Positions 1,922-52,161 are shown, counted from the first letter of the stretch. The stretch: DNA of 64,000 bases from Bdellovibrionota bacterium (GCA_040754655.1 JBFMCE010000003.1:3231-67230); one strand, 5' to 3'. The notes: a model not told the origin generated them from the sequence alone. Numbers and translations: made by a program.

Positions 1922-1938
1922 AACCTTCAGCCGAGATC

Positions 1939-2412
1939 CTAGTTCCTCGCCGCGGAATTTGCAACGACCCAGTCGTAGACATGCCTGACGATGCCGCTTC
2001 CACCGGCGGCCGGGATTGTTTTCTTCGCGAGCTTCAAGATTTCAGGATGGCTGTCATTGGGGCACATTGAAAAACCTACTATCTGCATGCAACCCGCGTC
2101 GTTCATATCATTACCGATGTAGCAAACGTCGCTTGGCGTGAGGCTTTTCTTTTCCAAAAGGGCGACAAGGGCTGCTTTTTTATCTTCCTGACCTTGAATG
2201 GCCTCAATATTGAGTTTTCTTGCGCGAGCACTCACCACGGGGTTTTTTTCGGTGGAAAGAATGATTTGTTCGATCCCCAGCTTTCGAATTTGTCCCATCC
2301 ACCACCCGTCAGAGCGGTTGCAGGCCACGCTTTCACGTCCATCTTCCGTGACCCAAACTCGGTTATCGGTGAGGACGCCATCAAAGTCGTAAACGATGAG
2401 TCGCGTTACCAT
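1939..2412 (-). CDS. HAD-IIIA phosphatase, KdsC-like (putative nonulosonate-9-phosphate / Kdo-8-phosphate type phosphatase)
   Basis: The DFDGVLTDN and GNDMNDAGCM motifs in a 157 aa protein match the KdsC / Kdn-9-P phosphatase subfamily. Confidence 0.8.
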   Translation of the reverse strand: MVTRLIVYDFDGVLTDNRVWVTEDGRESVACNRSDGWWMGQIRKLGIEQIILSTEKNPVVSARARKLNIEAIQGQEDKKAALVALLEKKSLTPSDVCYIGNDMNDAGCMQIVGFSMCPNDSHPEILKLAKKTIPAAGGSGIVRHVYDWVVANSAARN

Positions 2413-3251
2413 ATGGTTCTGCCTCCATCGATCACAAGGTTCGCACCTGTCATGAACGACGAGGCATCCGAGGCTAAAAATACTAATGCGCCCTTGTATT
2501 CATGGGGCTTAGCCATTCTTCCCATGGGGATGCGTTCAGTGAGTTCGCGAATGAACTTGGGGTCTTGATTGTTTTCAACGCCGGCAGGAGAGATCGCATT
2601 GACTCGGATATTTTGTTTCGCCCAGTAGGTCGCCCAATACCTCGTCATATGAATGAGGGCTGCCTTGCTTGTCGCGTACGACAACGGCGTATTGAATCCC
2701 ACTCCTGGATAGTCTCTTTCGGGATTTGGCTGGTAGATGCGATGGTCGGGGCTAATGACGCCTACATCGGAGGCGATGTTGATGATCGAGGCCCGCGGTG
2801 CGCGTTTTAGAAGGGGAGCCAAGCCCTGGGTCACCATGAAAGTGCCGGTTAAGTTGACGTGCATTGCAAGGTTCCAAAGTTCGAGCGGATACTCTTCGAA
2901 TGAGTCAAAATAGCGCTTAAACTTTTCTTGCCCACGGGCGACCGTCATTCCCGCATTGTTCACAAGGATATCAAGTTTGCCGAATTTCTCTTCGATAATT
3001 TGCGAAGCCTTGTCGATCGAGGCTTTGTCGCCAATATCGACTTCTTGAACGTGAATCTTTCCTTTGTGTTTTTCTTCCAAAGCCTGCTTGGCCTGTTGCA
3101 ACGCATCGGGGTTGATGTCCCAGAGCATGACAGAAGCATTTGCTTCAGCTAGCGCAGCAGCATGTTGTTTCCCAAGCAGGCCGGCACCGCCCGTAATAAC
3201 GGCAACACGGTCGGAAAGATCAAATAAGGCGTGAATCGATATCGTTTCCAT
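2406..3251 (-). CDS. SDR family oxidoreductase
   Basis: Rossmann motif TGGAGLLG, NNAG motif, and catalytic Y...K in YATSKAAL. Confidence 0.8.
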   Translation of the reverse strand: METISIHALFDLSDRVAVITGGAGLLGKQHAAALAEANASVMLWDINPDALQQAKQALEEKHKGKIHVQEVDIGDKASIDKASQIIEEKFGKLDILVNNAGMTVARGQEKFKRYFDSFEEYPLELWNLAMHVNLTGTFMVTQGLAPLLKRAPRASIINIASDVGVISPDHRIYQPNPERDYPGVGFNTPLSYATSKAALIHMTRYWATYWAKQNIRVNAISPAGVENNQDPKFIRELTERIPMGRMAKPHEYKGALVFLASDASSFMTGANLVIDGGRTIW

Positions 3252-3353
3252 AAGAACTCTCTTTGCACGGGTCGCCAGGTTAAGGCAAGGTCCTCGTTAT
3301 GGTCGACTTGTTTTGGGCTTTCTTGGACTTCAAATCATGCTACAGTTGGGCCC

Positions 3354-4247
3354 ATGGCGCAAACCGAATGCTTGAACTGCAAGTTTAGCGAACACGAAGT
3401 GAAGTACAAGGGACCTATTCGAGCAGGAACTTGGGGCCATCAGACCTCCGAAGACCAGCAAGTGCTCGCCTGCAAGCGATGCGGGCTTGCGCGGCTTGAG
3501 CATTTTCCGGATCAAAAAAAATTCTATAGCTCGGCAGAGTATCGCAATGCATATAATGGCTCTGTTCAGGTTCAAGATTATTTCAAGCTTCATGATCATG
3601 AACAGTCTCCTCGCATCGCGAACATCGGCGTTGAAAAGTTTCGGGGCGCTCGTGTTCTTGATTATGGTTGTGGCGGTGGGGCATTTCTGGATTTGGTGAA
3701 AGGTGTTGCCCAAGAGACTTTTGGGATTGAACCTTGCCTTGAGTTTCACGAGAGCTTAGGGAAACGCGGCCACCAAATTTTTGAATCGGCCCAAGATGCG
3801 CTTTCTCGAGTTGACGGGTCGATGGATGTCGTGCTGTCTTTCGGAGTGATTGAGCATGTCGTAGATCCGCTTGAATATCTTCAAAACATCAAAAGATTAT
3901 TGAAACCCGGCCGAAGCGCTTACCTGGAAACCGACAACCTCAATGAGATTTTGATGAACCTAGAAGTTCGTGAGTTTGAGCCCTTCTTTTATCGAACAGC
4001 TCATCTTTGGTATTTCACCGCTGAGACTTTGAAATCGCTTTGTGAAAGGGCGGGGCTTGAGGTGAGGCACATTGGGTTTCGGCACACTTACGATCTTTCA
4101 AACGCGATGGTGTGGATGAGAGACAGGCGTCCTACAGGGTTGAATAAGCTTGGCCTTTTTGATGATTCAATGAATGCCATGTGGCGATCTTCGTTGGAAG
4201 CAAGAGGCTTGGCTGATCTTATTTTCTTCGAGGTTGGGAAGGGTTAG
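3354..4247 (+). CDS. Class I SAM-dependent methyltransferase with N-terminal Cys4 zinc-ribbon
   Basis: CLNCKF...CKRCG zinc ribbon followed by SAM motif VLDYGCGGGAFLDL. The ORF-track start at 3231 overlaps the convergent SDR gene, so the internal ATG at 3354 (MAQTECLNCKF) is preferred. Confidence 0.7.
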   Translation: MAQTECLNCKFSEHEVKYKGPIRAGTWGHQTSEDQQVLACKRCGLARLEHFPDQKKFYSSAEYRNAYNGSVQVQDYFKLHDHEQSPRIANIGVEKFRGARVLDYGCGGGAFLDLVKGVAQETFGIEPCLEFHESLGKRGHQIFESAQDALSRVDGSMDVVLSFGVIEHVVDPLEYLQNIKRLLKPGRSAYLETDNLNEILMNLEVREFEPFFYRTAHLWYFTAETLKSLCERAGLEVRHIGFRHTYDLSNAMVWMRDRRPTGLNKLGLFDDSMNAMWRSSLEARGLADLIFFEVGKG

Positions 4248-4340
4248 GCGCTTCTTACACGAAGATATGGAAGCCTTGGTTCGCGTTCGTTCTGAGGCAG
4301 CTCAGTTTGATGACGAGGGGCTTGGAGGAGTCAGGGCAGC

Positions 4341-4994
4341 TTATTCGTTCGGTCGATCTATTTGGAATGTAATCCCGTCTTTGTACTTAGAGTCGCCGTA
4401 GTTTGTTTCCCAAAGGATTTTACTGGCGGCGCTATCGTCTCGAAAACTAATCTTGTAAGCAGTAGATCCGAGTTCGCTTGCGTTTTCTTCTGAGATCTTG
4501 AATTCGACCTGTCGTTGAAAGGTCGTATTTTCGGGCCGAAATTTTGCCTTTCCGATTGGAAACAGCGTTCCTTGGTAGGAGCCTAGACGCGACTGAACGA
4601 CTGCATGGATAGCGTCGAGGTCTCTTTTAGAGATCGTTTGCACCATCTTGTTGTAAGCGTCTCTTGCCGCATCCAAGCAGTACTTAAAGGATTTAGAGTG
4701 TTTTTTTGAGTTTCCGGCGGTCTTTATCTCGAACTTGGTTGTTCGCGGATATCCCGTTTCACCGCGTGAGATGATAAATTCGTAATCTCCCCTGACGGCA
4801 TCTTTTTGAAGATCGGCAGTCCTTATTCCGCTTCGAGTCAAGCACCCCTGAAACATTGCAAGTGGGATTCCCGTAAAATGCCATGCGGAATATTGTCTTT
4901 GGGATCGTGTAAAATTATCTGAGGGATTAGTTGCGGTTGCGCAGCCGGTGATGGAGCTGAGGATCATGCATCCAAGAAGTAGCGCTAGCTGCAT
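4341..4994 (-). CDS. Hypothetical lipoprotein
   Basis: From the internal Met, MQLALLLGCMILSSITGCATA gives a signal peptide with an ITGC lipobox. GGAGAAAAATG Shine-Dalgarno precedes this start. No recognisable catalytic motif. Confidence 0.5.
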   Translation of the reverse strand: MQLALLLGCMILSSITGCATATNPSDNFTRSQRQYSAWHFTGIPLAMFQGCLTRSGIRTADLQKDAVRGDYEFIISRGETGYPRTTKFEIKTAGNSKKHSKSFKYCLDAARDAYNKMVQTISKRDLDAIHAVVQSRLGSYQGTLFPIGKAKFRPENTTFQRQVEFKISEENASELGSTAYKISFRDDSAASKILWETNYGDSKYKDGITFQIDRPNE

Positions 4995-5183
4995 TTTTCT
5001 CCGACGTGATGGATTTAAACAGAAGTACTTTATCATGGGTTTTATTACTTCAAGGATCCCGTTTTAAAAAGCCTTATTTGGGCTCTTTTTTTGGGAGTGT
5101 CGCTCGTTCGTGTGTTCGCGTGGCGGAGAAGTAGGTGATTCGTGGCCTGAAGATTGCTTAGGTTGCGGCAAGAGGTAAAGAAA

Positions 5184-6212
5184 ATGAACGAGTTTCAATC
5201 CAAACTTCATGAACAGGCGTTGGTGGTGGCTAGAACACATCGGGAGGCAGAAGCGGATCTTCTCGACGTCTTGCAAAAGGTTGAACAGCACAAGGTATTC
5301 ATTGCGGTTGGCTGCTCGAGCATGTTCCAGTACTGCGTCCAAATCTTAAGACTGTCTGAGAACACGGCGTTCAATGCCATTACTGTCGCAAGAAAATCCA
5401 AAGAAGTTCCAAGTCTCAAGCAGGAAGTGAAGGCTGGTCGAATTACCCTTTCCAGTGCCAGAAGAGTTACTTCGGTATTAACTCCGAAAAACCAACAGAA
5501 GTGGCTGGGACTTGCCTCGCGCCTTCCACAAAGGGCGCTTGAAAGGGAGATTGCAAAAGAAAACCCAAGAACCGCTACTCGAGAGATGGCGACCTATGTC
5601 TCAGAACACAGATTGGAGTTGAAACTTGGCGTTTCGGAAAAACTTATTGCCGATTTAAGAAGGGTTCAAGACCTCTTGAGTCAAAAGCGCCAGAAGCCCG
5701 TAAGTCTTGAGCAAGCTTTGGAGGCGATGACAGCGCTTTACCTTGAAAGTAACGATCCGGTAAAGAAAGCGGACCGGATTCTTGGGAGGGTTGGCCGGCA
5801 ATCGGATTCTGTAGGAAAGACACCGCAGGTCGCGACGGAGAATCATAAGGTGCCGGCGCAATACGAAGACCAGATCTCGACAACTCAATTCGGCGCACGC
5901 CGAGAATCCCGACAAGTTAGGACAGGTGCTCCAATGTCTTTCATGACTGCGCCGCAAAGGCTAGCCGAGGCTCAACCCGTGCGTCCTAATAGGAGAGCAG
6001 CGATTTTAGCTGGAGTTCGTCATAAGGTCTTTAGGAAGACAAAGGGACAATGCACTTATCGGGACTCCAAAGGAAATCGATGCAATGAGCAGAGGTGGCT
6101 GCATTTTCACCATATCAAACCCGTTTCAGAGGGGGGCGAAAATGTTCAAGAAAATCTCACGCTTCTTTGTAGGAATCACCATGTCTATTTGCATCGGATG
6201 GGAGTGATATAG
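5184..6212 (+). CDS. HNH endonuclease domain protein (DUF222-like N-terminus)
   Basis: C-terminal C..C...HFHHIKPVSEGGENVQENLTLLCRNHH is an HNH motif (H-N-H with CxxC). RBS AAGAGGTAAAG lies upstream of the ATG at 5184. Confidence 0.7.
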   Translation: MNEFQSKLHEQALVVARTHREAEADLLDVLQKVEQHKVFIAVGCSSMFQYCVQILRLSENTAFNAITVARKSKEVPSLKQEVKAGRITLSSARRVTSVLTPKNQQKWLGLASRLPQRALEREIAKENPRTATREMATYVSEHRLELKLGVSEKLIADLRRVQDLLSQKRQKPVSLEQALEAMTALYLESNDPVKKADRILGRVGRQSDSVGKTPQVATENHKVPAQYEDQISTTQFGARRESRQVRTGAPMSFMTAPQRLAEAQPVRPNRRAAILAGVRHKVFRKTKGQCTYRDSKGNRCNEQRWLHFHHIKPVSEGGENVQENLTLLCRNHHVYLHRMGVI

Positions 6213-6285
6213 GTACTGAGTAAGTCATTGGAAGAAAAAACTTGTCGGAAAGAAGTAAGCTTTTCCTTTTGTCCCTTCTGGAATG

Positions 6286-7044
6286 CTAAGCGGGCGTTTG
6301 ACCGCCATCGACCCTAACAACGCTTCCAGTGCAAAACGAGGCTTGGGTTGAAGCGAGAAAAACCACGAAAGAAGCGATTTCTTCTGGTTTTCCAAAACGT
6401 TTCATCGGTACGGCGGCTTGAATGTGTTGCTCGATCTTTTCTTTGTCTCGGGTCATGAGAGCTTCCCAGCGCCCACCCTCAGCATAAATATTTCCCGGGG
6501 CGACGAGGTTGAAGCGTATCGAGTCTTCAGCCAGTTCTTTTGAGGCAATTACGCAAAAGTGTTCAAGGGCGCTTTTGGCGGCACTATAGCTTACTGGGGC
6601 GCCTAACCTGGTTTGGCCTGCGATTGAAGAAATGCCCACGACCGAAGCTTTTCGCGAGGTTTTCAATAAAGGTCTGAACAATCGAAGAAGCCCTGCATGT
6701 GAAACCAAGTTGAGATTTAAAACCCGGTGCCATTCTTCGTCTGGGGTATCAAGGCCTGCGTGTGATGCCTGCCCACTCCCGACGTTTAAAACCAGGATGT
6801 CGAGGCTCGTCCATGTCTGCTCGACTTCCGAAAAGAACCTTTTTCGATCATCCCCACGCTCTAAGTCGCAGATAGTAAATTTACAGTTAGCAAGCGCCTT
6901 AGATGCCTTAAGAAGTTGCTTCTCGTCTCTGCCAGTGATCCAGACCTCGGCCCCTTCTTCAAAGAAAGCCTTGGCAATAGCAAACCCCATTCCCCGCGAG
7001 CTTCCGGCAATGGCCACGCGAGCGCCCTGCAATCCTAACTGCAT
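6286..7044 (-). CDS. SDR family oxidoreductase
   Basis: AIAGSSRGMGFAIA Rossmann motif, NVGSG motif, and catalytic Y...K in YSAAKSAL. Confidence 0.8.
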   Translation of the reverse strand: MQLGLQGARVAIAGSSRGMGFAIAKAFFEEGAEVWITGRDEKQLLKASKALANCKFTICDLERGDDRKRFFSEVEQTWTSLDILVLNVGSGQASHAGLDTPDEEWHRVLNLNLVSHAGLLRLFRPLLKTSRKASVVGISSIAGQTRLGAPVSYSAAKSALEHFCVIASKELAEDSIRFNLVAPGNIYAEGGRWEALMTRDKEKIEQHIQAAVPMKRFGKPEEIASFVVFLASTQASFCTGSVVRVDGGQTPA

Positions 7045-7883
7045 AAGTTATTGATCCACTCTTTGACCATGCGACGGTACTTCGCAGCCGCACCCAAATA
7101 GTCTTCCGAAGGTGCGGTTTGAAGAATGAAATCTTCGTTATAATGAGAAGCCTTCAGCCCCTTAAATGCGCGTTCAAAGTCAGTATTACCCGAAAGTAAA
7201 GGAACCGTTGTCCCGCCAAGCATACGGTCTTTGATGTGCACATTTAAAATCCGGTCACCAAAGGCCCGACACTCCGATAGCGCGTCATATCCGAGAGCGG
7301 CAGAATTGCCTAAGTCAAGATTTGCTCCCACATTCTTTGGAAGTTGATTTAAAAAATTCCGAAACTCAACAGGTGCGAGGTCAGTTTCAACAGCGATACG
7401 CAAACCAAGCTCGCTGGCTTTCTCTGCAACCAGCGCAAGCCTCTCGACTGCAAGCGTTCTATCTTTGGGGTCCTGCAACGACGACGAGTCGACAAACGGG
7501 AATTCCACCAAAGGGCATTTGATCTGTCGAGCAATTTCCAAGAGCTCGAATGTTTTGGCCATGATGCCTTTGGCTTTCGATGAATCGCGCTCTACGAGCT
7601 TGTGGATCATGAAATAGTCAGCGCAAATAGATGCGAGGGCAATCCCAGACCGTTTCGATAGCGCCATCAGCTCTTGCCGCCCTGAGACGCTGACCAAGGG
7701 ATTGTCTACGAGGTAGAGTTCATCATAAATAAGCTCGATGCATTCGAACTCAAGTGATTGAGCTCGCTCAAATTCTTCTCGCCAAGACTCGCGTGGGAAG
7801 GCTTGAATGCGATCAGAGGGCTTTGGTGAGAGCCTTCCCTGCATGAATCCTACTCTGTGCGGGATTTTGCTTTGAAGAAGCAC
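7035..7883 (-). CDS. Sugar phosphate isomerase/epimerase (xylose-isomerase-like TIM barrel), putative
   Basis: 282 aa with alternating acidic/hydrophobic TIM-barrel pattern (ECIELIYDE, RIAVETD, NLDLGN). Weak motif-level match only. Confidence 0.4.
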   Translation of the reverse strand: MLLQSKIPHRVGFMQGRLSPKPSDRIQAFPRESWREEFERAQSLEFECIELIYDELYLVDNPLVSVSGRQELMALSKRSGIALASICADYFMIHKLVERDSSKAKGIMAKTFELLEIARQIKCPLVEFPFVDSSSLQDPKDRTLAVERLALVAEKASELGLRIAVETDLAPVEFRNFLNQLPKNVGANLDLGNSAALGYDALSECRAFGDRILNVHIKDRMLGGTTVPLLSGNTDFERAFKGLKASHYNEDFILQTAPSEDYLGAAAKYRRMVKEWINNLCS

Positions 7884-7889
7884 GTTTGT

Positions 7890-8747
7890 TTAGGCCTCGA
7901 AATAACGCAGCTTCTTTGCCACTGCCTTTTCAGCGTCGCCGAAAGTTTTTTCGCCGGTGCCAAAAGCCCCTTCCATAGCGCGAATGTATTTTGTCAAAAT
8001 CTCAAGTCCACGTGACTCAAGAGAAGCCGCCTGATCACTGCCATACATCGCGCGATCAAGCGTGATGTGTCTTTCGATCGCATCGGCTCCGAGTGCTGCA
8101 GCCAACATAGAGGGCAATACCCCTGCTTCATGGCCACTATAGCCAACAGGGCATTTGTAGCGTTCCCGCAACGAGAGCATCACAGCCACATTGGTTTCAT
8201 TTTCCGCACAAGGGTAAGTCGAGACGGTGTGCATCAAAGTGTATTTGCAGTTTTGTTTTTCAAAAATTTCTACGGCGCGATCAACTTCTGGATAGCCGCA
8301 CATCCCCGTCGAAATAAAAGTATGCTTTTTCTCGGAAGCAACGCGCTCTACAAACTTCCAGTGCGTCAGCATCGCAGAAGCGATCTTGTTATGAGCGCAA
8401 TTGAATTTTTCTAAGAAATCTTGGCTGCCTAAATCCCATGCCGAAGCAAACCAACCGATACCGACCTCTTTGCAATAACGGTCGATTTCTTTGTACTGGT
8501 CTTGATTGAATTCAAGTCCCATCTTTTGTTCACGTTGGGTTGTCCCCCACGGGCTCTCTCTGGTCTGAGAAAGTACTTCTTGCGTGTACACGACGTTGAT
8601 GTCGCGCTTCTGGAACTTCACGTAGTCGCAGCTATTCTTTTTGGCCATATCAATGAGTTGTTTTGCGATCTCCACACTTCCGTTGTGATTGATTCCGATT
8701 TCTGCGATGATGGCGCATTTAGAATTGGGGCGTTTTACAGCAAACAT
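7890..8747 (-). CDS. NeuB-family nonulosonate synthase (PEP-condensing), short form lacking the C-terminal SAF domain
   Basis: IIAEIGINHNGS is the signature NeuB motif; YSGHE metal-site region is present. At 285 aa it ends before the antifreeze-like domain that PseI and LegI in this window carry. Confidence 0.85.
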   Translation of the reverse strand: MFAVKRPNSKCAIIAEIGINHNGSVEIAKQLIDMAKKNSCDYVKFQKRDINVVYTQEVLSQTRESPWGTTQREQKMGLEFNQDQYKEIDRYCKEVGIGWFASAWDLGSQDFLEKFNCAHNKIASAMLTHWKFVERVASEKKHTFISTGMCGYPEVDRAVEIFEKQNCKYTLMHTVSTYPCAENETNVAVMLSLRERYKCPVGYSGHEAGVLPSMLAAALGADAIERHITLDRAMYGSDQAASLESRGLEILTKYIRAMEGAFGTGEKTFGDAEKAVAKKLRYFEA

Positions 8748-8845: not shown

Positions 8846-10939
8846 ATGGATTCGAGGCGTTTTAGAGTATATCTTACGGGCGGTGACCTGCAAGGCTGGG
8901 CGCTCGACACCGACTTAAAGCTAGCGAAAAAAGCTTTGAGCGGGGTGGTGGATTTTGTCTCAGACCCACACCATGCGGACGTGATCCACACGGTATGGCC
9001 AGAGCAGTTGCTCGAAAAACCCGAACTCGCCGAATTGCGAAAGGGTAAACCGATCGTCGCGACGTTTTCAAATGATCCCCACGCTCTATTTGAAAAGGTG
9101 CCGGGGCTCTATGACGATGCGAGCGAATGGTATTGCGTCGGGCAGTCGCGTGATGCGGTCCGAAAACTCAAAGAGTTGAGCATCCCTTCCGTCGAGTGTG
9201 TTCCTTATATCGCCGACCTCGAGTCTTTTAAACCCCTGCTGAAAGACGATCCAGAACTTTTAGCTTTAAAAGCAGAGCTCAAGATTCCGCGGGACAAGTA
9301 CTTGATCGGGTCGTTTCAGCGAGATTCCTTGGGATCCAACCTTCGCCAGTTCAAGGCTCAAAAGGGTGCCGATGCCTTGTTGTCGATCGCATTGGGGCTG
9401 AAACAGCGCGTCGGCGCTAATGGATTCCATGTCGTTTTAGCTGGTCCTAGGCGGCATTGGATCATGGATGCGTTCGAGAAAAATGCGATCTCTTATTCCT
9501 TCGATGGGGAATTTCTCGGAGGCGATGATTACCCAAAGAACATCCGAAGCGCGGAAAGAATAAATCAGCTGAAGAACCTCTTGGATGTTTATCTGATCAC
9601 AAGCCGTTGGGAAGGCGGACCCCGCGCGGTCTTAGAAGCTGCCGCGAGCAAGACGCCAGTGATCAGCACGGCGGTGGGAGTGGTTCCCGATATTTTGAAT
9701 CCTGTCTGCATCTATAAAAATCTTTCACAGGCGATAGATCTGCTTGAATCTGATTTCAAGAGCCGACACCTTCGTGGTTACGTCGATGAACATTTCGTCA
9801 CGGTAAACAAGAACCATAGCGTCGAAGCTATTCATGGTCTTTGGAAAAACTTTTATGCAAACCTTGGGAGTGAACTTAAGCCTTCCTCAAATCGGGATCA
9901 AATTGACCAGAAAATCCAGGGAAGGGGCGCCAACACCCATTTTTATTTCAAGAAGGCCCTCTTCAAGGCCTCCAAAGTAAAACAGAAACTGATTCAAAAA
10001 ATCCGAAGCCAAAGCTCGCGCAAAGCGACCATCACTCTTTGGGGTGAGATGGTTGCAGGACCTTATGGCGGCGGCAGCCAAGTTTTAAAAGCAATCGCTC
10101 GCGAGCTTGAGTCTCGTGGCTTCGAGGTTTTAAACAATTCTTATACAGATGCCGACGGACACATCCTGAATTCCGCTTTCTTTGACACCGAAAAACTCAA
10201 AACCGTGCTCGGGGCTTCCCAGAAAAAACCTAAAGTCGTGCACCGGATCGATGGTCCGATCTCGCTCTACCGGGGCAAAGATCTTCATCTCGACCAGCAA
10301 ATCTTCAGGTTGAACCGCGAGGCCGCCACTGCAACCGCGTTTCAATGCGTTTACTCGTGGCGTGAGTCGCTCAATATGGGATTTCGACCGGTCAATCCAA
10401 TGATCATCCGAAACGCATGCGACCCGAGCCTGTTTTTTAAGCCAGTTTCGAAGGCTGGGCTAGATGCTTCGCGGAAAGTGAAATTGATCTCTACATGTTG
10501 GTCGACCAACAAGATCAAAGGCTTCGATGTTTACCGACACCTTGATGAGACTCTCGACTTTTCGAAATATGATTACACTTTCGTCGGAAGATCACCGGTT
10601 GAGTTTAAGAACATCCGCCTCGTCGACGCGGTCGCGTCAAAAGAGCTTGGGGATTATTTGAGGCAGGCTGATGTCTTCATAACAGCGAGCCGGAACGATC
10701 CAGCCTCGAATTCATTGCTAGAAGCGCTGAATTGCGGATTGCCTGCGATCTATGCCCAAAGTGGCGGGCATAGCGAATTTACCTGGTTCGCCGGGCTTTC
10801 GTTTCAAGGCCCTCAAGAAATCGCCGGCCTTCTCGAGAGAATCGAACGAGACTATCGGAGCTATCAACTGTCTTGTTACTCCATTTCTATTTCGGAAGCC
10901 GTTGACAGTTATCTACAGGCGTTGGGTTTATGCCGATAA
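8846..10939 (+). CDS. Tandem glycosyltransferase (two GT-B/GT4-like modules in one 697 aa protein)
   Basis: Two GT4 C-terminal EX7E-type regions are present: LITSRWEGGPRAVLEAAASKTPVIST and VFITASRNDPASNSLLEALNCGLPAIYAQSGG. A GT4 N-domain-like GPYGGGSQV...GFEV lies between them. Confidence 0.65.
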   Translation: MDSRRFRVYLTGGDLQGWALDTDLKLAKKALSGVVDFVSDPHHADVIHTVWPEQLLEKPELAELRKGKPIVATFSNDPHALFEKVPGLYDDASEWYCVGQSRDAVRKLKELSIPSVECVPYIADLESFKPLLKDDPELLALKAELKIPRDKYLIGSFQRDSLGSNLRQFKAQKGADALLSIALGLKQRVGANGFHVVLAGPRRHWIMDAFEKNAISYSFDGEFLGGDDYPKNIRSAERINQLKNLLDVYLITSRWEGGPRAVLEAAASKTPVISTAVGVVPDILNPVCIYKNLSQAIDLLESDFKSRHLRGYVDEHFVTVNKNHSVEAIHGLWKNFYANLGSELKPSSNRDQIDQKIQGRGANTHFYFKKALFKASKVKQKLIQKIRSQSSRKATITLWGEMVAGPYGGGSQVLKAIARELESRGFEVLNNSYTDADGHILNSAFFDTEKLKTVLGASQKKPKVVHRIDGPISLYRGKDLHLDQQIFRLNREAATATAFQCVYSWRESLNMGFRPVNPMIIRNACDPSLFFKPVSKAGLDASRKVKLISTCWSTNKIKGFDVYRHLDETLDFSKYDYTFVGRSPVEFKNIRLVDAVASKELGDYLRQADVFITASRNDPASNSLLEALNCGLPAIYAQSGGHSEFTWFAGLSFQGPQEIAGLLERIERDYRSYQLSCYSISISEAVDSYLQALGLCR

Positions 10940-13490: not shown

Positions 13491-14554
13491 AAAAAATTAA
13501 AATGGTTTTAAGCATCGGACGCCAGTTTCTTGAATTGCTTTTCACCTTGAAGCCCAAAGAGAAATCGCGAACACCCATAAAGGTGCTCGCAAAACCTGCT
13601 TTCTTGGGTGGGCCGGCGACGAAGGTTTCTCAACTGACCGAGATAATGGCGCACCGAAGGCAGCATTATTCCTCGGTCTTTTGTCTTTCGGCGGTTCATA
13701 CGCCGATTTTTCTTTTAAGGATTTTGAAGCTTCTGGGCGCTAAGGTCGTCGTCAATCAAAACGGCGTTTATTATCCCAGTTGGTTCCCTCTCGGATGGGA
13801 GGAAAAGAACGCTTATCTCAGAAGGTTGAACGTGCTTTCTGATCATACTTTTTTTCAAAGCGAGTTCGCATTGCGAAGTTACAAACAGTGGGTTGGCGAT
13901 TTGCCCAAAAACTATTCCATCCTTCATAATCCCGTAGACACGAGAAAGTTTTTGCCACTCGAGGAAGGGGCGCTAAAGAATAATGCGCTTCGAGTCTTGG
14001 TATTCGCGGACGTGTCTGAGTTTACCGAGCCCTTGTGGCAATGCGTAAAGGGACTGCTGCATTACATGGAGTTTCACCCCTTGGAACGCGTCAGCGTTGA
14101 GTGGACTTTGATGGGAAGAATCCTTTCCGGAAAGGTGTTTGATCGCCACCAATTGGGAGAGCTTGATAAGATCGAAAAATTAAAGATAAAGATGGTTTGG
14201 GAACCCGAAGCTCATGTCGTTCCCGAGAGAATCCGAGAGCATGATGTCGCGCTACACCTGGTGTACAATGACGTTTGCCCCAACAAAGTATTGGAGTGCC
14301 TCGCCTCAGGGCTCGGAGTGATCGGCTTGAGCGCCGGAGGAACGGTCGAACTGGTCGGCGACGCGGGAATTACTCTCAACGTCCCTCAAGGCTTCGGGAA
14401 ACCGGCATTCCCGGCTTACTCTGAACTTCGAGAAGCGCTTTCATCCTATTTTGCGCAAAAACAAGAATACCGCCGCAGGGCGGTCCTGCGAGCACAACAG
14501 TTTGATTTGACTTTGTGGCATGAAAAAGTTCGAAAAGAATGCTTACGGTCTTAA
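13487..14554 (+). CDS. Glycosyltransferase group 1 (GT4-like)
   Basis: C-terminal VLECLASGLGVIGLSAGGTVELV matches the GT4 E..E-type motif. ATGA stop/start overlap with the upstream gene. Confidence 0.55.
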   Translation: MKKIKMVLSIGRQFLELLFTLKPKEKSRTPIKVLAKPAFLGGPATKVSQLTEIMAHRRQHYSSVFCLSAVHTPIFLLRILKLLGAKVVVNQNGVYYPSWFPLGWEEKNAYLRRLNVLSDHTFFQSEFALRSYKQWVGDLPKNYSILHNPVDTRKFLPLEEGALKNNALRVLVFADVSEFTEPLWQCVKGLLHYMEFHPLERVSVEWTLMGRILSGKVFDRHQLGELDKIEKLKIKMVWEPEAHVVPERIREHDVALHLVYNDVCPNKVLECLASGLGVIGLSAGGTVELVGDAGITLNVPQGFGKPAFPAYSELREALSSYFAQKQEYRRRAVLRAQQFDLTLWHEKVRKECLRS

Positions 14555-16504
14555 CTTACGCTCCAGATGGCGTGCGATCCTTTCCGCGGATTTTCCATCC
14601 AAAGGCCCGGTGTGCTGGGTGACGTAATTCAACGACATCCGGATTTGCCTCTGGCATCTCTCGCCACCGCTGAGCATTTCTTGAAAGAGATCTACTAGGT
14701 TATCCTCAGGCCCTGCTACGGGAATACCGGCTTCAGAAGCATAGTGCGTTTGTTTTTCAAGCTCTGCCTGAACGTGACGAGGCTGAATGGATACGATCGG
14801 AGTTTGAGAGAGAATGAGCTGGGAGGTGGCGCTGCTGAAGGGAACGATCACGAGATCGCAACCAGAAGCAAGTTCGATGAGATCCGCCGAATGGATGATT
14901 TTGGGCATGCGCGAAACTAGCCTTGCGATCTGTTTTTCGAGTGCGACCGGGTCTTGTTGCGGATGCGCCTTTACGAGAACTTCTGCGTTTAGCGCTGCGG
15001 CTGCCGCTAAACTTGAGCGATAAAACGCGTCAAGGTCGCGCGCGGAATACCACTCATCCGGATAAGTGGCGAGAATCAAAAAGATAGGGGCTTCTTTGTC
15101 GAAATTATAGTGCGCCACAAGTGCATCTTTTTGCACTTGTCGGTTGAGCTTCGACACTTTGTCTACAAGAGGATCTCCTACGACTTCAATTTGATCTGGC
15201 TTACATGCTCTTTCATTCACAAAGCCCGTCGCCAGAAACGAGCCGCTCGTGCCAAAGTGCCTGCTGAGCCTACGCACCAGCCCGATGAAGGGCGAAGGAG
15301 AAAGAAAGGAATACGATACTGTGGGAATCCCTTTTCGTTCAGCTTCAAGCGTGAAGGCCCGGTTGATGTCCCATTCTTCGAAGTGGACGATCAAATCGGG
15401 CGAAAAGTGATCGATGCAGCGTTTTGATGTCTCTGCGTGAAGCGCCGTAACCGGGCTTGCTTCACTGATCATTTCCTCTAGGAATGGCTGTACCAAAGGA
15501 GCAAGCTCAACTCCCTTGTACTGCAAGCTGAAGGCTGCCGTCCGGAAAACAGGCAGAACGCCTTTAATCTTCGCTGAAACCTCTCTCACGATTCGTTTTG
15601 TTTCTTCTCGTGATATGAATCCGGACGCAGCCACGATCTTCACGCCGCGATTTTCGAGCCTGCCAAGAAGGGTGTCTCGCTCTAGGTCTTTGCCTACGAA
15701 GTCAGTTGCCACGATAAACTCTGCATCCAGGGTCTGACCAAAGGTTTCAAGTAACGCCTCTAGACGCCTGAGTGTGCGTTCTTTGTATGCGACGAAGAGA
15801 AGCCGAGGTTTTTCTTTTGCGTGAACGTCTTGGCGCTTGGGTTCGGTTGGAGTGAAGGTGAGCCAGTCTTTAAGCATGTAGTCGTAGTCGATCTTAGGGG
15901 ATGCATCAAGGCCTTGGATGAGTTCCAATAGTTTCGACTCAAGGGAATCCTCGCCAGGAACTTTGATTTCTTTTCTCGGGAGCATTCTTTGGAAGATCAG
16001 TTCTGGTACAGAGTTTCTGGAAAAAGTAAAATATTCCAAGTCTGGTTCTTCGTGAGTCAAGTCCCTGAATGCCTCGACGTAAACGATATAGTTGGCAAGA
16101 ATTTGAAAGGCCCACCTGGGTTCGGAGATTTTGAAGACAGAGCTTCCTCTCCAGGCAAGACCTGATTTTTCGCCAGCCACTTGAGCAAAGGCTTCGAGTT
16201 GGTCGGCGAAGTTGTGCAAAGGAGTGTAGTCGGTTTGATGAATGACTCCGGGTAAAATATCTTGATATTGGCAAAGACCGGTTCGGACGCTTCCCGGCAA
16301 ATTCTCGCTAACGGCCTTGCTAATCAACCCTCGCCAGTGCGCGTTAGGAGCCTGTTTGAAAATGCGGGCTATTTGTCGCTTGATGACGAGGCTCCCAAGC
16401 GCTTTCAACGCCAACCTTGGAACGCGTGCATAACGCCGTCTTCCGATGGGGAAGATATGATTTGCGGTTACAAGAACCGCTTCAATGGCTGGTTGTTTTC
16501 TCAA
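14543..16504 (-). CDS. Large hypothetical GT-B-like protein (Capsule_synth/TagF-like?), paralog group A
   Basis: 653 aa. C-terminal block PIFLILATYPDE...VLVKAHPQQ...VIVPFSSATSQL...GIPV shares a [KR].HP ... S/T-rich ... G.PV pattern with the ORFs at 54285 and 59629. Confidence 0.3.
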   Translation of the reverse strand: MRKQPAIEAVLVTANHIFPIGRRRYARVPRLALKALGSLVIKRQIARIFKQAPNAHWRGLISKAVSENLPGSVRTGLCQYQDILPGVIHQTDYTPLHNFADQLEAFAQVAGEKSGLAWRGSSVFKISEPRWAFQILANYIVYVEAFRDLTHEEPDLEYFTFSRNSVPELIFQRMLPRKEIKVPGEDSLESKLLELIQGLDASPKIDYDYMLKDWLTFTPTEPKRQDVHAKEKPRLLFVAYKERTLRRLEALLETFGQTLDAEFIVATDFVGKDLERDTLLGRLENRGVKIVAASGFISREETKRIVREVSAKIKGVLPVFRTAAFSLQYKGVELAPLVQPFLEEMISEASPVTALHAETSKRCIDHFSPDLIVHFEEWDINRAFTLEAERKGIPTVSYSFLSPSPFIGLVRRLSRHFGTSGSFLATGFVNERACKPDQIEVVGDPLVDKVSKLNRQVQKDALVAHYNFDKEAPIFLILATYPDEWYSARDLDAFYRSSLAAAAALNAEVLVKAHPQQDPVALEKQIARLVSRMPKIIHSADLIELASGCDLVIVPFSSATSQLILSQTPIVSIQPRHVQAELEKQTHYASEAGIPVAGPEDNLVDLFQEMLSGGERCQRQIRMSLNYVTQHTGPLDGKSAERIARHLERKLRP

Positions 16505-18143
16505 AGTCGATCACCTTATCCGCGATTCCGACCAAAGGCTTGTAATGAGTGACGATCACAACCGAGATCTGACCTCGAAGCGCGCTCAATGCGCTAGTCA
16601 CGACCGCGGCCGATTCGCTATCAAGATTGGCCGTAGGTTCATCGAGCAAGAGCGCCGTGGGGCGTCGCAATAACGCGCGGGCCAACGAGAGCCGCTGTTT
16701 TTGCCCGGCAGACAAACCTTCGCCGCGGTCTGAAAGGCGGCGGTTGAGGTCTTCCGGAAAATTGGCCAGAAACTCAAGACAGTGGGCCTTTTCAAGAGCC
16801 GTTTTGAGTTCATCTTGGCTTGGGGCAAAGTCCAGGCCGTACACCAAGTTCTCAAGAATCGTTCCTCCGATGACGTGTGGATCTGGCCCGACGTATCCAA
16901 AGCGGGAATGCGCCTCAACGGCTCCTCTCATGGATTTGTCGCCAGAGTTTGTGCCGATGGTGCCTGCCTTGGGTTCAAGAACGCCTGCCAACAGGTAAAG
17001 CAGCGTGGTTTTGCCAGAACCTGACGCCCCAGTGATGACAGTGATTTCGCCAGGATTCGTTGCTAAGTTGATCCGGTTTAAGATGGGTTTGTTTTCATAA
17101 GAAAACCCGACGTTTTGCAAAGTCCACGAGGTAGGGCGTAGGTTTGACATTGCAGGACTGGTTGGTTGCTTGAGCCTGGGAGGCGCCTGAGTATATTGTC
17201 GTTTCCACCAGTGGATCAACTCGTTCATCTGAGGCGAATACATACGCCAGGATGCGATTGAACTTGAAAGTTCAGCGAGGATCTGCGAAGCGCGGATGAA
17301 AAGATAAATGAACGATACGAATAGACCACCGCCCAGCGCTTGTTGCTCGCGATTGAAATACGAGATGGCAATGATCACGAGCACGCCGATAAATTGAGGC
17401 GCGGAATACTTGCAACTTTTGATGGCCGAGAACAGGCGCGTGTTGAGAAAGAGGCTCTTGAGATCAGCATGGATCTTGGAAAGTTCCCTTTCTTGGGCTC
17501 TGCACACCCTCAGAAACTGCAGGTTCTTCATCGAATCGAGCAACCGCTGGTTGACGGCTGCCGACCTTTCGGTCAGCTCGTTCCCTGAGTTTTTGACGTG
17601 ACGGTCAAGCAGTCTGAGAGCGGCGCCAAAAGCAACCAAAACGCCGATACCCGAGATTGCGAGCACCGGAGCAATCTTCAATAAGTAGATCAGGATCAAG
17701 GTCAATGAGAGCGCATGGATGCTGGTGTTTTGTACGGCGGTGATGCAGTTGGCAGCGCCTGTTACCCGGTCATTGACGTAAGTCACGATCCTCGACGAAT
17801 CGCTATTGCCTGAAAGCAGCGCCCATTCAATGATCCGCGATCGCATGTGATAAGCGAAAGATTCATTGACCATGGCGTGACTGTAGACTTTGAACCACTG
17901 AATCGCGCCCCGGACAAAAGCAAATGCCGCTAAAAACGCGAGGTTGGCGAAAAAAGCCTTGGGCACCCAATCCGGCACATTCGCGACGTTGGGGTCGATC
18001 GTTCCCATTGAAACCAGGAAAGATTGGATGAGCATCGCGAAGCTCACCTCTACCGCGCTCAGCAAGATTCCGGCTATAATGCTGAGTACGAGGATGCGAG
18101 CCACCTTCGGACCAAAAAAATCAAAGAGTCTTGCAGACCGCAA
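16482..18143 (-). CDS. ABC transporter, fused permease/ATP-binding exporter (MsbA/PglK-like)
   Basis: N-terminal 6-TM domain, then Walker A GASGSGKTT, ABC signature LSAGQKQRLSLARAL, and Walker B LLLDEPTANLD. Confidence 0.85.
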   Translation of the reverse strand: MRSARLFDFFGPKVARILVLSIIAGILLSAVEVSFAMLIQSFLVSMGTIDPNVANVPDWVPKAFFANLAFLAAFAFVRGAIQWFKVYSHAMVNESFAYHMRSRIIEWALLSGNSDSSRIVTYVNDRVTGAANCITAVQNTSIHALSLTLILIYLLKIAPVLAISGIGVLVAFGAALRLLDRHVKNSGNELTERSAAVNQRLLDSMKNLQFLRVCRAQERELSKIHADLKSLFLNTRLFSAIKSCKYSAPQFIGVLVIIAISYFNREQQALGGGLFVSFIYLFIRASQILAELSSSIASWRMYSPQMNELIHWWKRQYTQAPPRLKQPTSPAMSNLRPTSWTLQNVGFSYENKPILNRINLATNPGEITVITGASGSGKTTLLYLLAGVLEPKAGTIGTNSGDKSMRGAVEAHSRFGYVGPDPHVIGGTILENLVYGLDFAPSQDELKTALEKAHCLEFLANFPEDLNRRLSDRGEGLSAGQKQRLSLARALLRRPTALLLDEPTANLDSESAAVVTSALSALRGQISVVIVTHYKPLVGIADKVIDFEKTTSH

Positions 18144-18759
18144 AGATCTCTCCTTCGCTATTGTAAAAAGAGGTTTGCACGACGAAGCCCGCTTTTTCGA
18201 CCTCGCTGTGAAGCATGCTCAAAGTGTATTCGCGACAGTGCGTCGGATCCGTCCTCGCATCAAGACCAAGGCTTTGTTTGAACTGAAACCGCCAGTTCTC
18301 TTGAGAAGGTACGCAAATGAGCAATTTCCTGAATGTGGTGAGCCTTTTTAAAAAAGCGATCGGGTCCGGCAAATGCTCAAGCACGTGGCTCAAGAGAATC
18401 GTGTTCACGCCCTGCTGGGTAAGCAAAGGGATGAGATTTTGGTCAAGGATATCCATCCTGATGAAATTCGTTTGATCCTTGAGCAAAAGCGCTGGACTCA
18501 GATCCACGCCGACGGCGGACGCTACTTTTGGGCTGACCGCAAGGACGAGTTTTCCGGTGCCGCACCCGAGGTCGGCCACCCGATCGGTCTTATCGACCCA
18601 ATTTACGAAATCCCTCGAGCGAAAGTCATGCAAGTTCTTGGGATGAGGCATGCGCAAGAGCTTGCAGAGATGATAGAAAAAACGCGATTCAATGAAATCG
18701 TGCACGAAGAAGTAAAACCGGAACAGAATTTTATAAAGGCGCTCGCGATCTTCGGTCAT
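18121..18759 (-). CDS. Class I SAM-dependent methyltransferase
   Basis: VADLGCGTGKL SAM-binding motif I and the acidic post-I residue VGVDLS. Confidence 0.65.
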   Translation of the reverse strand: MTEDRERLYKILFRFYFFVHDFIESRFFYHLCKLLRMPHPKNLHDFRSRDFVNWVDKTDRVADLGCGTGKLVLAVSPKVASAVGVDLSPALLLKDQTNFIRMDILDQNLIPLLTQQGVNTILLSHVLEHLPDPIAFLKRLTTFRKLLICVPSQENWRFQFKQSLGLDARTDPTHCREYTLSMLHSEVEKAGFVVQTSFYNSEGEIFAVCKTL

Positions 18760-18761
18760 GT

Positions 18762-20036
18762 CTAGTGCACCACATTGGGGCTCGAGGGAAAAATCCCTTT
18801 GATGTCGAGCAAGAAACCCTTGGGATCGATGATCTGATCCAAGCCTTCATCCAGCTGTTTTAAGATCGGCGCATGGGGAACCGCAAGGACTGCCGCCGTA
18901 TACTTCTTCTGGGGGATCCCATCGAGAAGTTCCAAGCCGTATTCCTTTCGGGCAAGTTCGCGGTCTGCTATCGGATCCGCCACATCCACTTTGATGCCAT
19001 ACTTCTGAAGCGCTCGTACAAGATCAACGACCTTTGTGTTCCTGACATCAGGGCAATTTTCCTTGAAAGTGAAGCCCAAGACTAAAACTTCTGATCCAAT
19101 CGGCGAAACCTTGCGTTCGAGCAATTTGCGCAAAAGTTTTTCCGCGAAAAACTCCGGCATCGAATCATTGGTACGGCGGCCTGCGAGGATCATCTCCGGG
19201 TGATAACCCACTTCAAGCGATTTGTGAGTGAGGTAATAAGGATCCACCCCGATGCAATGGCCGCCGACAAGCCCGGGTTTGAATTTCAAGAAATTCCACT
19301 TGGTGCCGGAAGCTTCGAGCACCTCATGCACGTCAAGACCCAAGCGGTCAAACAGAACCGTGAGTTCATTGATCAAGCCGATGTTCACATCACGTTGAAT
19401 GTTTTCAATGACCTTCGCCGCTTCAGCGGTGCGGATGTCTTTTGCGCAGTGAATTCCAGCAGCGACGATCTTTGAATACATCCCAGCAACGAGTTCGAGC
19501 GTCTTTTGATTCGAGCCCGATACGATCTTCTTGATCTTGGGTATCGTGTGTTCTTTGTCACCGGGATTGACGCGCTCTGGACTGTATCCCAAGAAAAAGT
19601 CCACATTGAGTTTTAGCCCCGTCAGTTCTTCTAGTTTTGGGGCCAAGACCTCTTCAGTCAAGCCCGGGTAAACCGTCGATTCAAATACGACCGTCGCTCC
19701 TTTTTGAAGCACTTCGCTTAAGATTTCACATGCGGAAAAAAGAGGGGTCAAGTCCGGTGCATTGTACTTGTCGACCGGCGTTGGAACCGTGACGATGAAA
19801 AAGTTCAAGCCCTTGAGATCGTTCTTCTTGCTTGTGAACAGAAGATTTGGCGAGCCAAGCTCCGTCGCGGGTACTTCGTTTGTTCGGTCAATTCCGGCGC
19901 TGAGTTCTTGAATACGCGTTGGGTTGCGATCATAGGCTCTCACTTTCATGACTTTGCTAAAGCAGACCGCTAAGGGCAGACCTACGTATCCAACTCCAAC
20001 AATTCCGATTTCTCGAGGAAGGTCGATGACCGCCAT
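18762..20036 (-). CDS. Nucleotide-sugar dehydrogenase (UDP-GlcNAc/UDP-ManNAc/UDP-Glc 6-dehydrogenase family; WbpA/TviB/WecC-like)
   Basis: IGIVGVGYVGLPLA NAD-binding motif; 424 aa; catalytic Cys region GGHCIGVDPYY. Confidence 0.85.
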   Translation of the reverse strand: MAVIDLPREIGIVGVGYVGLPLAVCFSKVMKVRAYDRNPTRIQELSAGIDRTNEVPATELGSPNLLFTSKKNDLKGLNFFIVTVPTPVDKYNAPDLTPLFSACEILSEVLQKGATVVFESTVYPGLTEEVLAPKLEELTGLKLNVDFFLGYSPERVNPGDKEHTIPKIKKIVSGSNQKTLELVAGMYSKIVAAGIHCAKDIRTAEAAKVIENIQRDVNIGLINELTVLFDRLGLDVHEVLEASGTKWNFLKFKPGLVGGHCIGVDPYYLTHKSLEVGYHPEMILAGRRTNDSMPEFFAEKLLRKLLERKVSPIGSEVLVLGFTFKENCPDVRNTKVVDLVRALQKYGIKVDVADPIADRELARKEYGLELLDGIPQKKYTAAVLAVPHAPILKQLDEGLDQIIDPKGFLLDIKGIFPSSPNVVH

Positions 20037-32023: not shown

Positions 32024-32142
32024 TTCTTTGAAACACTCCGTATGGGCGAAATTAAATCAAATGAGGTTAAAACACAAAAGCTAAAGACAGGCGCCGGGAT
32101 AAGCCATTGAAGAAGCAAAATGTTTCATGCATAAACAGGGAA

Positions 32143-39647: not shown

Positions 39648-42025
<2,378 letters not shown>

Positions 42026-42029
<4 letters not shown>

Positions 42030-52157: not shown

Positions 52158-52161
52158 AGCC

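Follow-up and report, generated by a model that had tools for sequence, protein, structure and literature searches.

Our analysis concerns a 64,000-nucleotide (nt) stretch of a contig from a Bdellovibrionota metagenome-assembled genome (MAG; this stretch is hereafter the window), and in particular three of its proteins, which we refer to as P1, P2 and P3. In our reading, the window is probably a surface-glycan locus that makes three cytidine monophosphate (CMP)-activated ulosonic acids and that carries, for each of the three pathways, one soluble glycosyltransferase (GT) candidate with a GT-B fold and a histidine-proline (HP) motif, these candidates falling into two lineages. P1 (14543–16504, minus strand, 653 amino acids (aa)) is an HP-motif GT-B protein of an uncharacterized family, while P2 (54285–55892, plus strand, 535 aa) is a KpsC/KpsS-like candidate pseudaminic acid (Pse) transferase on the basis of its family, motif and synteny, and P3 (59629–61218, minus strand, 529 aa) is a KpsC/KpsS-like candidate legionaminic acid (Leg)-type transferase on the basis of its family, structural model and synteny. 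All three open reading frames (ORFs) were confirmed on the MAG contig, where they are annotated by NCBI as the hypothetical proteins AB1540_00865 (653 aa, identical to P1), AB1540_01060 (535 aa) and AB1540_01085, respectively. The P3 ORF itself reaches 61287, and the annotated start corresponds to Met24 of this ORF (window position 61218), giving 529 aa; were translation to begin at the GTG at 61287, the ORF would overlap the adjacent NeuB gene by 86 nt. An earlier note on this DNA had remarked that none of the three ORFs has a standard glycosyltransferase motif, and a Pfam scan returned zero matches for P1, P2 and P3 even at an expectation value (E) of ≤1, with the single weak match in an NCBIfam scan of the three being that of the P1 C-terminus to the BFO_1060 family glycosyltransferase (NF046086). 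None of the three contains hydrophobic segments, and they are thus predicted to be soluble.

The same note had claimed that the locus makes three CMP-activated ulosonic acids and lacks a recognizable sialyltransferase or Maf-family gene, and both statements agree with our Pfam assignments: NeuB and CMP-transferase (CTP_transf_3) are each represented by three genes in the window, and no member of the GT52, GT80, GT42 or GT38 families or of the Maf/MptE families was found among the 56 window ORFs scanned. P2 closes a Pse-type operon comprising PseB/PseC (39874–42029), the second CTP_transf_3 gene (46013–48055, plus strand, 680 aa, fused to a class-III aminotransferase in an uncommon architecture), a GNAT gene (49073) and the PseI-like NeuB#2 (49666–50715, plus strand), with HisH/HisF, a WbpG-like gene and a methyltransferase lying between NeuB#2 and P2. 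The P3 start is overlapped by the LegI-like NeuB#3 (61202–62281, minus strand), next to an Epimerase_2 gene, with a PglD-like acetyltransferase, a PtmE-like CBS+NTP-transferase gene (56619–57668) and, directly after the latter, the third CTP_transf_3 gene (57665–58363, plus strand) nearby; going by the established Campylobacter pathway, this gene set is Leg-type. The remaining module, which we propose as the source pathway of the P1 donor, consists of NeuB#1 (7890–8747, minus strand, 285 aa, without an SAF domain), an AP_endonuc_2 TIM-barrel protein (7035–7883, minus strand), the first CTP_transf_3 gene, encoding the CMP-ulosonate synthetase of this module (1202–1921, minus strand), and a double GT1/GT4 glycosyltransferase of 697 aa (8846–10939, plus strand).

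What the three candidates have in common is a K/R-x-H-P motif, which reads AEVLVKAHPQQ followed by FSSATSQ in P1 (K512-A-H514-P515, 14960–14971, minus strand), WYVKPHPGG followed by FTVFGTAAHE and then GIPVV in P2 (K356-P-H358-P359, 55350–55361, plus strand), and LVLRIHPSEAT followed by KPAV in P3 (R343-I-H345-P346, 60181–60192, minus strand). Conservation was counted over 40 members of the P1 family (16 of them forming a core), 34 of the P2 family and 19 of the P3 family, and in each family the HP-centered motif is the most conserved feature, with its histidine and proline invariant throughout (40/40, 34/34 and 19/19) and its basic residue present in 37/40, 34/34 and 19/19 members, respectively. 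Profile–profile alignment with hhalign places the motifs in register between the P2 and P3 families (99.2%, E 3e-19, 336 columns) and between the P1 and P3 families (95.6%, E 1e-8, 322 columns over both Rossmann halves), and gives 95.2% for the P1 and P2 families over a region restricted to the N-terminal half. Pairwise BLASTP is marginal for P2 and P3 (E 7e-4 over 68 residues) and for P1 and P2 (E 0.024), and finds no match between P1 and P3, such that the colinear similarity of the three is visible at the profile level only. With profile alignments extending over 322–336 columns, a chance coincidence of motifs does not account for the likeness. The C-terminal pattern described in the earlier note therefore stands insofar as the motif is present, and in register, in all three proteins, but its "G.PV" element had been misplaced in P1: the equivalent there is Q567-T-P569-I-V, with P569 invariant (40/40), and the GIPV at residues 592–595 is a downstream look-alike, 25 residues beyond, that we rejected as the homologue.

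The three proteins nevertheless do not form one family. A word-indexed search for relatives of P1 found P1 alone, and an exhaustive HMMER search gave about 280 representatives, around 20 of which are full length at E<1e-30; the P2 family comprises at least 234 sequence clusters, none annotated, and the P3 family 25 clusters. The hidden Markov model (HMM) of the P3 family matches P2 directly (E 2e-13), whereas that of the P1 family misses both P2 and P3 at E≤10 and instead matches the homologue of uridine diphosphate (UDP)-N-acetylglucosamine (GlcNAc) 2-epimerase encoded in the window itself (Epimerase_2, 62278–63432) at E 2e-8. The fold neighbors of the P1 and P3 models also differ, and P1 has an α/β N-terminal domain of about 230 residues that is without a counterpart in P2 or P3. 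Since both the HMM and the fold evidence separate P1 from the other two, there are two families in all, with P1 a separate lineage; P2 and P3, judging from their sequence profiles, are true homologues belonging to one unannotated family that is distantly related to KpsC, KpsS, WbbB and KpsS1. Of the "three paralogues" in the earlier note, only the pairing of P2 with P3 is thus retained.

The enzymes closest to P2 and P3 are KpsC (GT107), the N-domain of WbbB (GT99), KpsS/KpsS1 (GT118) and KrkA (GT140), together with the PF05159 family. KpsC, WbbB, KrkA and KpsS1 (the Pse transferase of Acinetobacter) belong to the retaining CMP-ulosonate transferases and operate via a covalent sugar–Asp adduct, with the Asp in question located in an invariant QXXXD loop that is followed by an HP motif (PMC10148158, PMC12887879); Asp160 of KpsC is a proven nucleophile (PMC10148158), and KpsS1 is a proven Pse transferase (PMC12887879). 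Both P2 and P3 contain an equivalent of this loop at the start of the C-domain, in which a polar residue is followed, four positions on, by an invariant Asp: N318-C-F-L-D322 in P2 (55236–55250, plus strand; Asp in 34/34 and His or Asn at position 318 in 33/34 members) and N304-V-I-W-D308 in P3 (60295–60309, minus strand; Asn and Asp in 19/19), with D308 aligned to D322 and both being the predicted nucleophiles. The spacing from this Asp to the invariant basic-x-H-P motif is 36 residues in P2 and 37 in P3, compared to 34 in both modules of Escherichia coli CFT073 KpsC, in which QXXXD and HP are found at 156–160/194–195 and 484–488/522–523. In a colinear hhalign alignment of the P2 family to E. 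coli KpsC-N (152 columns), N318 falls on Q156, D322 on the catalytic D160, K356/H358/P359 on K192/H194/P195, and GIPV on GKPV; the probability of this alignment is 28%, as the template is a single sequence. Further conserved residues are E409 and V417 in the P2 family and E407 in the P3 family, and PF05159 is matched by 3/19 P3-family members (best E 2e-8).

Our AlphaFold2 model of P3 (predicted local distance difference test (pLDDT) 88.3, predicted TM-score (pTM) 0.89) has a GT-B fold in modified form, for which the best Foldseek TM-scores were obtained against KpsC (TMt 0.50–0.56) and WbbB (TMq 0.38–0.39) at E of about 4e-7, and P2 presumably adopts a GT-B fold as well, given its homology to the P3 family. 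The genomic context points in the same direction, as all ten relatives sampled (five of P2 and five of P3) adjoin NeuB or CMP-transferase genes: all five P2 relatives adjoin PseB/PseC/CTP_transf_3/PseG-H/NeuB genes, and all five P3 relatives have NeuB genes, of several types, within 8 kb. Taking this evidence together, we consider it likely, and well supported, that P2 and P3 transfer Pse- and Leg-type sugars with retention, in the mechanistic class of KpsC/KpsS1, within which they would be new sequence families. By analogy with KpsC-class retaining enzymes, P2 would serve the Pse-type pathway of NeuB#2 and P3 the Leg-type pathway of NeuB#3, with the invariant Asp of the [N/H]xxxD loop (D322 or D308) attacking C2 of the CMP-sugar while the region of the HP histidine holds the CMP phosphate, and the resulting covalent sugar–enzyme adduct then being passed to the acceptor with net retention.

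Several observations weigh against this assignment. HMMER comparisons of P2 and P3 to PF05159, KpsC and KpsS stay below significance, hhalign values for the two families against single E. coli KpsC or KpsS sequences are low (0.6–28%, albeit with the correct register), and the Gln of QXXXD is replaced by Asn or His in both proteins. In addition, the alignments to KpsC-N span the C-domain only, and no P2 or P3 equivalents of the KpsC acid/base residues His94 and Glu66 could be mapped in them; a conserved S-H-x-[VI]-Y stretch in P2 and P3 is a candidate for the N-domain catalytic residues. Searches of PDB sequences with the P2-family and P3-family profiles returned noise only. Compared to the KpsC class, P2 and P3 are also larger, at about 530 aa, and contain long helical insertions.

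In three metagenomic contigs unrelated to one another (L003, 10001–11566; L004, 10001–11626; L012, 8001–9758), the start of the P2 homologue overlaps the stop of a Wzt gene with a Wzt_C glycan-binding domain, and a complete PseB-PseC-PseF-PseG/H-PseI operon follows directly after the P2 homologue. These P2 relatives are thus directly coupled to Wzm/Wzt, as in the case of WbbB, while Wzm/Wzt are absent from the window itself. By analogy with the role of β-3-deoxy-D-manno-octulosonate (Kdo) in the WbbB system, this layout suggests a Pse cap that would license export of the O-polysaccharide; a literature search for Wzt recognition of a Pse cap returned no relevant work.

P1 presents a different picture. 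Its AlphaFold2 model (pLDDT 92.6, pTM 0.92) comprises the extra α/β domain (residues 1–229; 15818–16504, minus strand), which lies outside the GT-B structural matches and in which D92, F99 and W131 are conserved in the core family, followed by a canonical GT-B domain (residues 230–653; 14546–15817, minus strand), which we place in the Epimerase_2/TagF/BFO_1060 neighborhood, with structural matches spanning about 440 columns of the C-terminal part. The GT-B fold expected by the earlier note is hence predicted for both proteins modeled, P1 and P3, but the likeness to Capsule_synth and KpsC/KpsS that it had seen in all three holds for P2 and P3 and is not borne out by the P1 model: the closest structures to the P1 model are UDP-GlcNAc 2-epimerases, followed by NeuC (16.1), MurG (14.9), WaaA (14.6), TarL/TagF (14.2) and a polysialyltransferase (12.0), and KpsC is not among the top 50 structural matches. 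The QXXXD equivalent in P1 is A479-T-Y-P-D483, located 31 residues before the HP motif, and Asp is found at position 483 in just 5/16 core members and 7/40 members overall, such that there is no indication of a KpsC-type retaining mechanism in P1.

Other residues are conserved in the P1 family. F375-E376-E377 (15374–15382, minus strand) provides an acidic pair after strand 4 of the N-domain that aligns with D95 of the epimerases, with E376 and D/E377 each present in 16/16 core members, and we propose it as the catalytic base. The HP motif is in register with the HP of P3, KpsS, KpsC and the epimerases, and would contribute to binding of the nucleotide phosphate. It is followed by S557-S558...Q562...T568-P569-I-V (14792–14836, minus strand), in which the Ser/Thr pair is conserved in 40/40 and 29/40 members at its two positions and Q/E562 in 34/40. 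The core family also conserves R382, S402, R411-R412 and G443-D444, as well as a C-terminal signature, H631-x-G-P-x-D636-G-x-x-x-x-R642. Residue 617 of P1 is Cys, and is Arg in 15/16 core relatives and 21/24 others; compensation by the neighboring R616 is possible, or the alignment may be shifted by one position.

Matches of the P1 family to curated models are numerous and heterogeneous. Among the 40 members, NCBIfam matches are to NF046086 BFO_1060_trans (21, best E 7e-27), the TIGR04396 "surface carbohydrate biosynthesis protein" family (16, best E 2e-26), wecB (7), TIGR04326 (7) and NeuC (5), and Pfam matches are to Epimerase_2 PF02350 (16, best E 5e-20), Capsule_synth PF05159 (13, E 2e-7), Glyphos_transf (8, E 4e-18) and polysialyltransferase PF07388 (4, best E 1.4e-3); P1 itself has no significant match to PF04464, the TagF-like CDP (cytidine diphosphate)-glycerol glycerophosphotransferases. 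Searches of PDB sequences with P1 alone and with P0143 gave noise only, and we found no literature on TIGR04396, TIGR04326 or NF046086. BFO_1060 itself is a Tannerella forsythia transferase of a Leg derivative, and the 81%-identical Tanf_01245 is a transferase of a Pse derivative; knockouts of either lose the terminal nonulosonic acid (NulO), which is attached to N-acetylmannosaminuronic acid (ManNAcA), and a TagB-like domain has been noted in both enzymes, along with HP and D/E-D/E-G motifs (PMC5420450).

The P1 operon consists of four closely spaced minus-strand genes with overlaps. It begins with a dehydrogenase of the WecC/Cap5O UDP-ManNAc type (18762–20036), assigned from its PDB matches (4r16 at E 7e-53 and Cap5O at 5e-44, compared to 3e-25 for UDP-glucose dehydrogenase), continues with a methyltransferase (18121–18759, Methyltransf_23) and a type IV/ABCB-like ABC exporter containing both transmembrane and nucleotide-binding domains (16482–18143), and ends with P1, the start of which is overlapped by the exporter stop by 23 nt (16482–16504), indicating translational coupling. 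We compared the surroundings of P1-family genes at five independent loci, namely the window, L001, L002, L015 and L016/L017, and found NeuB and CTP_transf_3 nearby in three of these (the window, L015 and L016/L017). In the window, the NeuB#1 module lies 6 kb from P1. In L015 (P0149), PseB-like, DegT, methyltransferase+CTP_transf_3, NeuB, GT2 and formyltransferase genes are followed directly by the P1 homologue, and L016/L017 (P0150) encodes CTP_transf_3, a short NeuB without SAF, Aminotran_4, AP_endonuc_2, two short-chain dehydrogenases/reductases (SDRs), Wzm, Wzt, a methyltransferase, the P1 homologue, more methyltransferases and a double-GT1 protein. Four of the L016 genes are orthologues of window genes, with identities of 57% for NeuB#1, 38% for AP_endonuc_2, 35% for the first CTP_transf_3 and 39% over 693 residues for the double-GT1 protein. 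The P1 family thus recurs with this NeuB#1-type ulosonate module, ABC transporters and methyltransferases, but it does not do so everywhere, and a sample of five loci is too small for statistics.

Of the P1 relatives whose context is known, the two closest are found at the other two loci. In L001, from a Bacteriovoracia MAG, an exporter homologue (50% identity) is directly upstream of a 30%-identical P1 relative and overlaps it at 9992–9995; no other window glycan genes are conserved nearby, and the arrangement suggests a self-contained two-gene unit of exporter and P1 homologue. In L002, two small overlapping ORFs of 114 and 138 aa (9081–9816) lie directly upstream of the closest P1 homologue (33% identity), at the position of the exporter; an interpretation of these as ABC remnants was rejected on analysis, and the pair looks like a toxin–antitoxin arrangement.

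Our preferred, if tentative, reading of P1 is that it is a CMP-ulosonate transferase for the NeuB#1 product, sialyltransferase- or Tannerella-like, that feeds its coupled ABC exporter. Its candidacy follows from the distant homology to BFO_1060 and from the synteny in three of the five loci, and the earlier note's nomination of all three ORFs as the missing transferases is strong for P2 and P3, given their Asp, predicted fold and synteny, and plausible for P1. P1 shares with the Tannerella enzymes (Tanf_01245 and TFUB4_00887, the latter corresponding to BFO_1060) a GT-B/TagB-like domain, the HP motif and an acidic pair; in three of the five loci the P1-family gene lies near CMP-NulO genes, and the P1 operon contains a ManNAcA-forming dehydrogenase, with ManNAcA being the Tannerella acceptor; it differs from them in its length (653 aa compared to about 445 aa), extra N-terminal domain and coupled ABC exporter, the Tannerella enzymes acting in general protein O-glycosylation. 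Similarly, the HP motif, Ser-Ser pair and N-domain acidic pair, along with the proposed CMP donor, are reminiscent of the GT-B sialyltransferases (the GT38 polysialyltransferases, GT52 and GT80), whose motifs are D/E-D/E-G and HP, although the acidic pair of P1 lacks the following Gly, and PF07388 is matched only weakly by the four relatives mentioned above. Mechanistically, P1 would use the CMP ester of the NeuB#1-module product and attach this sugar, at the cytoplasmic face, to a lipid-linked glycan by a sialyltransferase-like single displacement, with E376/E377 as the base and H514 and S557-S558 holding CMP, after which the cotranslated exporter would move the product; ManNAcA may be part of the acceptor glycan, as the first gene of the operon encodes a WecC-type dehydrogenase.

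There are a number of arguments against a CMP-ulosonate donor for P1. The match of P1 to NF046086 reaches E 6.7e-4 and 18.9 bits against a cutoff of 200, over the C-terminal 142 residues only, and P1 and its ten nearest relatives score 17–31 bits against BFO_1060 or TIGR04326 (cutoffs 200–250), making this clade a relative, and not a member, of the curated families; the P1 family as a whole is only distantly related to the Tannerella BFO_1060 family. Neither NeuB nor CTP_transf_3 was found within 10 kb of the P1 relatives in L001 and L002, and in L002, where Pfam was run on 10 ORFs and two pairwise comparisons were made, neither an exporter nor ulosonate genes were found. Moreover, the sequence features of P1 do not tell a CMP from a UDP or CDP donor, and a UDP-sugar donor is possible, as P1 is matched best, by structure and by profile, by UDP-sugar epimerases and MurG. 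The alternative that arises from these points is a glycosyl- or polyol-phosphate transferase with a UDP or CDP donor (MurG/LpxB/UgtP- or TagF-like), the product of which is flipped by the exporter, with the proximity of NeuB#1 being incidental. This would agree with the UDP dependence of the nearest structures (epimerases, MurG, monogalactosyldiacylglycerol synthase and LpxB), with the matches of P1-family members to Glyphos_transf, diglucosyl-diacylglycerol synthase and LpxB models, and with the exporter, in L001, being the conserved direct neighbor where ulosonate genes are absent, as they are from L002 too. We regard it as rather unlikely: NeuB and CTP_transf_3 are near a P1 homologue in three of the five loci, one of which has the orthologous NeuB#1 module, the best curated family match is the Tannerella NulO-transferase family, CDP-glycerol and CDP-ribitol synthesis genes were not found in the 56 ORFs scanned, and module 1 is without another transferase candidate.

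The structural matches also raise the prospect that P1 is not a transferase, but rather a divergent UDP-GlcNAc 2-epimerase (WecB-like, or hydrolyzing and NeuC-like) that feeds UDP-ManNAc to the WecC-type dehydrogenase. The P1-family profile matches epimerase PDB chains (E 1.6e-6), PF02350 is matched by the 16/40 members noted above, and P1 resembles this class (PF02350; WecB, NeuC, LegG) in its best structural match, its HP, the acidic site at D95 and its C-terminal HxGPxDGxSxxR, which recalls the epimerase NPYGDGxASERI; in addition, a WecC-type gene is in the P1 operon, and WecB was not seen in the window. However, two of the three WecB carboxylates are gone, with the E117 site being Ser or Tyr and the E131 site Phe, Tyr, His or Pro in P1 and its core family (D95, E117 and E131 being the catalytic carboxylates of E. 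coli WecB), PF02350 is not matched by P1 itself at E≤1, and neither the extra 230-residue domain nor ABC coupling is an epimerase feature, rendering this option improbable. More improbable still is that all three proteins arose by duplication as paralogues that are all KpsC/KpsS-type retaining enzymes. This would explain the in-register HP motif and the 322 columns aligned between the P1 and P3 families, and draws on hhalign values of 93.7% for the P1 family against KpsC-N and 88.8% against KpsS, as well as on the presence of D483 at the QXXXD-equivalent position in P1 and two of its three closest relatives, but it is at odds with the poor retention of this Asp in the wider family, with the P1-family HMM finding the Epimerase_2 protein and missing P2 and P3, and with the distinct fold neighbors and N-terminal domain of P1. 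We therefore retain P1 as a candidate CMP-ulosonate transferase of its own lineage.

Within bacterial sialic-acid-like glycosylation, the step about which least is known is the transfer of pseudaminic, legionaminic and related acids; knowledge of Pse- and Leg-type transferases has been called scarce (PMC5420450), and CAZy families for ulosonate transfer are still being founded, with GT118 established in 2024 and GT140 in 2026 (PMC12887879). The present analysis adds two sizable unannotated families. Catalytic residues are predicted for each, gene neighborhoods lend support, and the models of P1 and P3 are confident, which makes the families directly testable as sources of Pse and Leg transferases for glycoengineering. 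Both families could also mark surface-glycan loci for annotation in uncultured bacteria, and the Wzt coupling of P2 relatives offers a new case in which control of export by a terminal sugar could be tested. It is conceivable, if somewhat doubtful, that the P2/P3 and P1 families are new glycosyltransferase families for bacterial nonulosonic or ulosonic acids, perhaps often adding chain-end caps wired to ABC export.

Outside of the three candidates, the NeuB#1 module (1202–8747) is itself unusual in combining a short, SAF-less NeuB, a xylose-isomerase-like TIM barrel, SDRs at 6286–7044 and 2406–3251, and a cytidylyltransferase. L016/L017 share the module, with the addition of Aminotran_4 and a Hydrolase_3 fusion, and its sugar could not be assigned from the known Pse, Leg, neuraminic acid (Neu) or Kdo pathways; the NeuB/AP_endonuc_2/SDR module traveling with P1 relatives may make a not-yet-described ulosonic acid. 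Amid the genes of this module, a 352-aa ORF (5154–6212, plus strand) carries a C-terminal HNH endonuclease domain.

In the Pse-type region, two paralogous Pfam-less proteins of about 380 aa (42921–44084 and 52141–53283) are 31% identical (E 9e-58), and two HisF paralogues (44581–45456 and 51345–52157) are 37% identical, with a single HisH at 50712–51338. These genes look like two amidotransferase sets of the WbpG/PseA type, implying acetamidino-modified sugars, and the order NeuB-HisH-HisF-unknown recurs in L011 and L012. An AsmA/DUF748-like gene (58315–59661, plus strand, 448 aa) lies between the Leg-type CMP-transferase and P3, and is convergent with the latter. About 1 kb without an ORF of ≥100 aa (31050–32106, GC content 0.52) separates a Wzy_C-like gene from an unannotated protein with nine transmembrane segments. 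Finally, a soluble 448-aa ORF (37412–38758, plus strand), with no Pfam or PDB sequence match, is found downstream of a GT2+GtrA gene, and could be an alternative transferase or other glycan-modifying enzyme.

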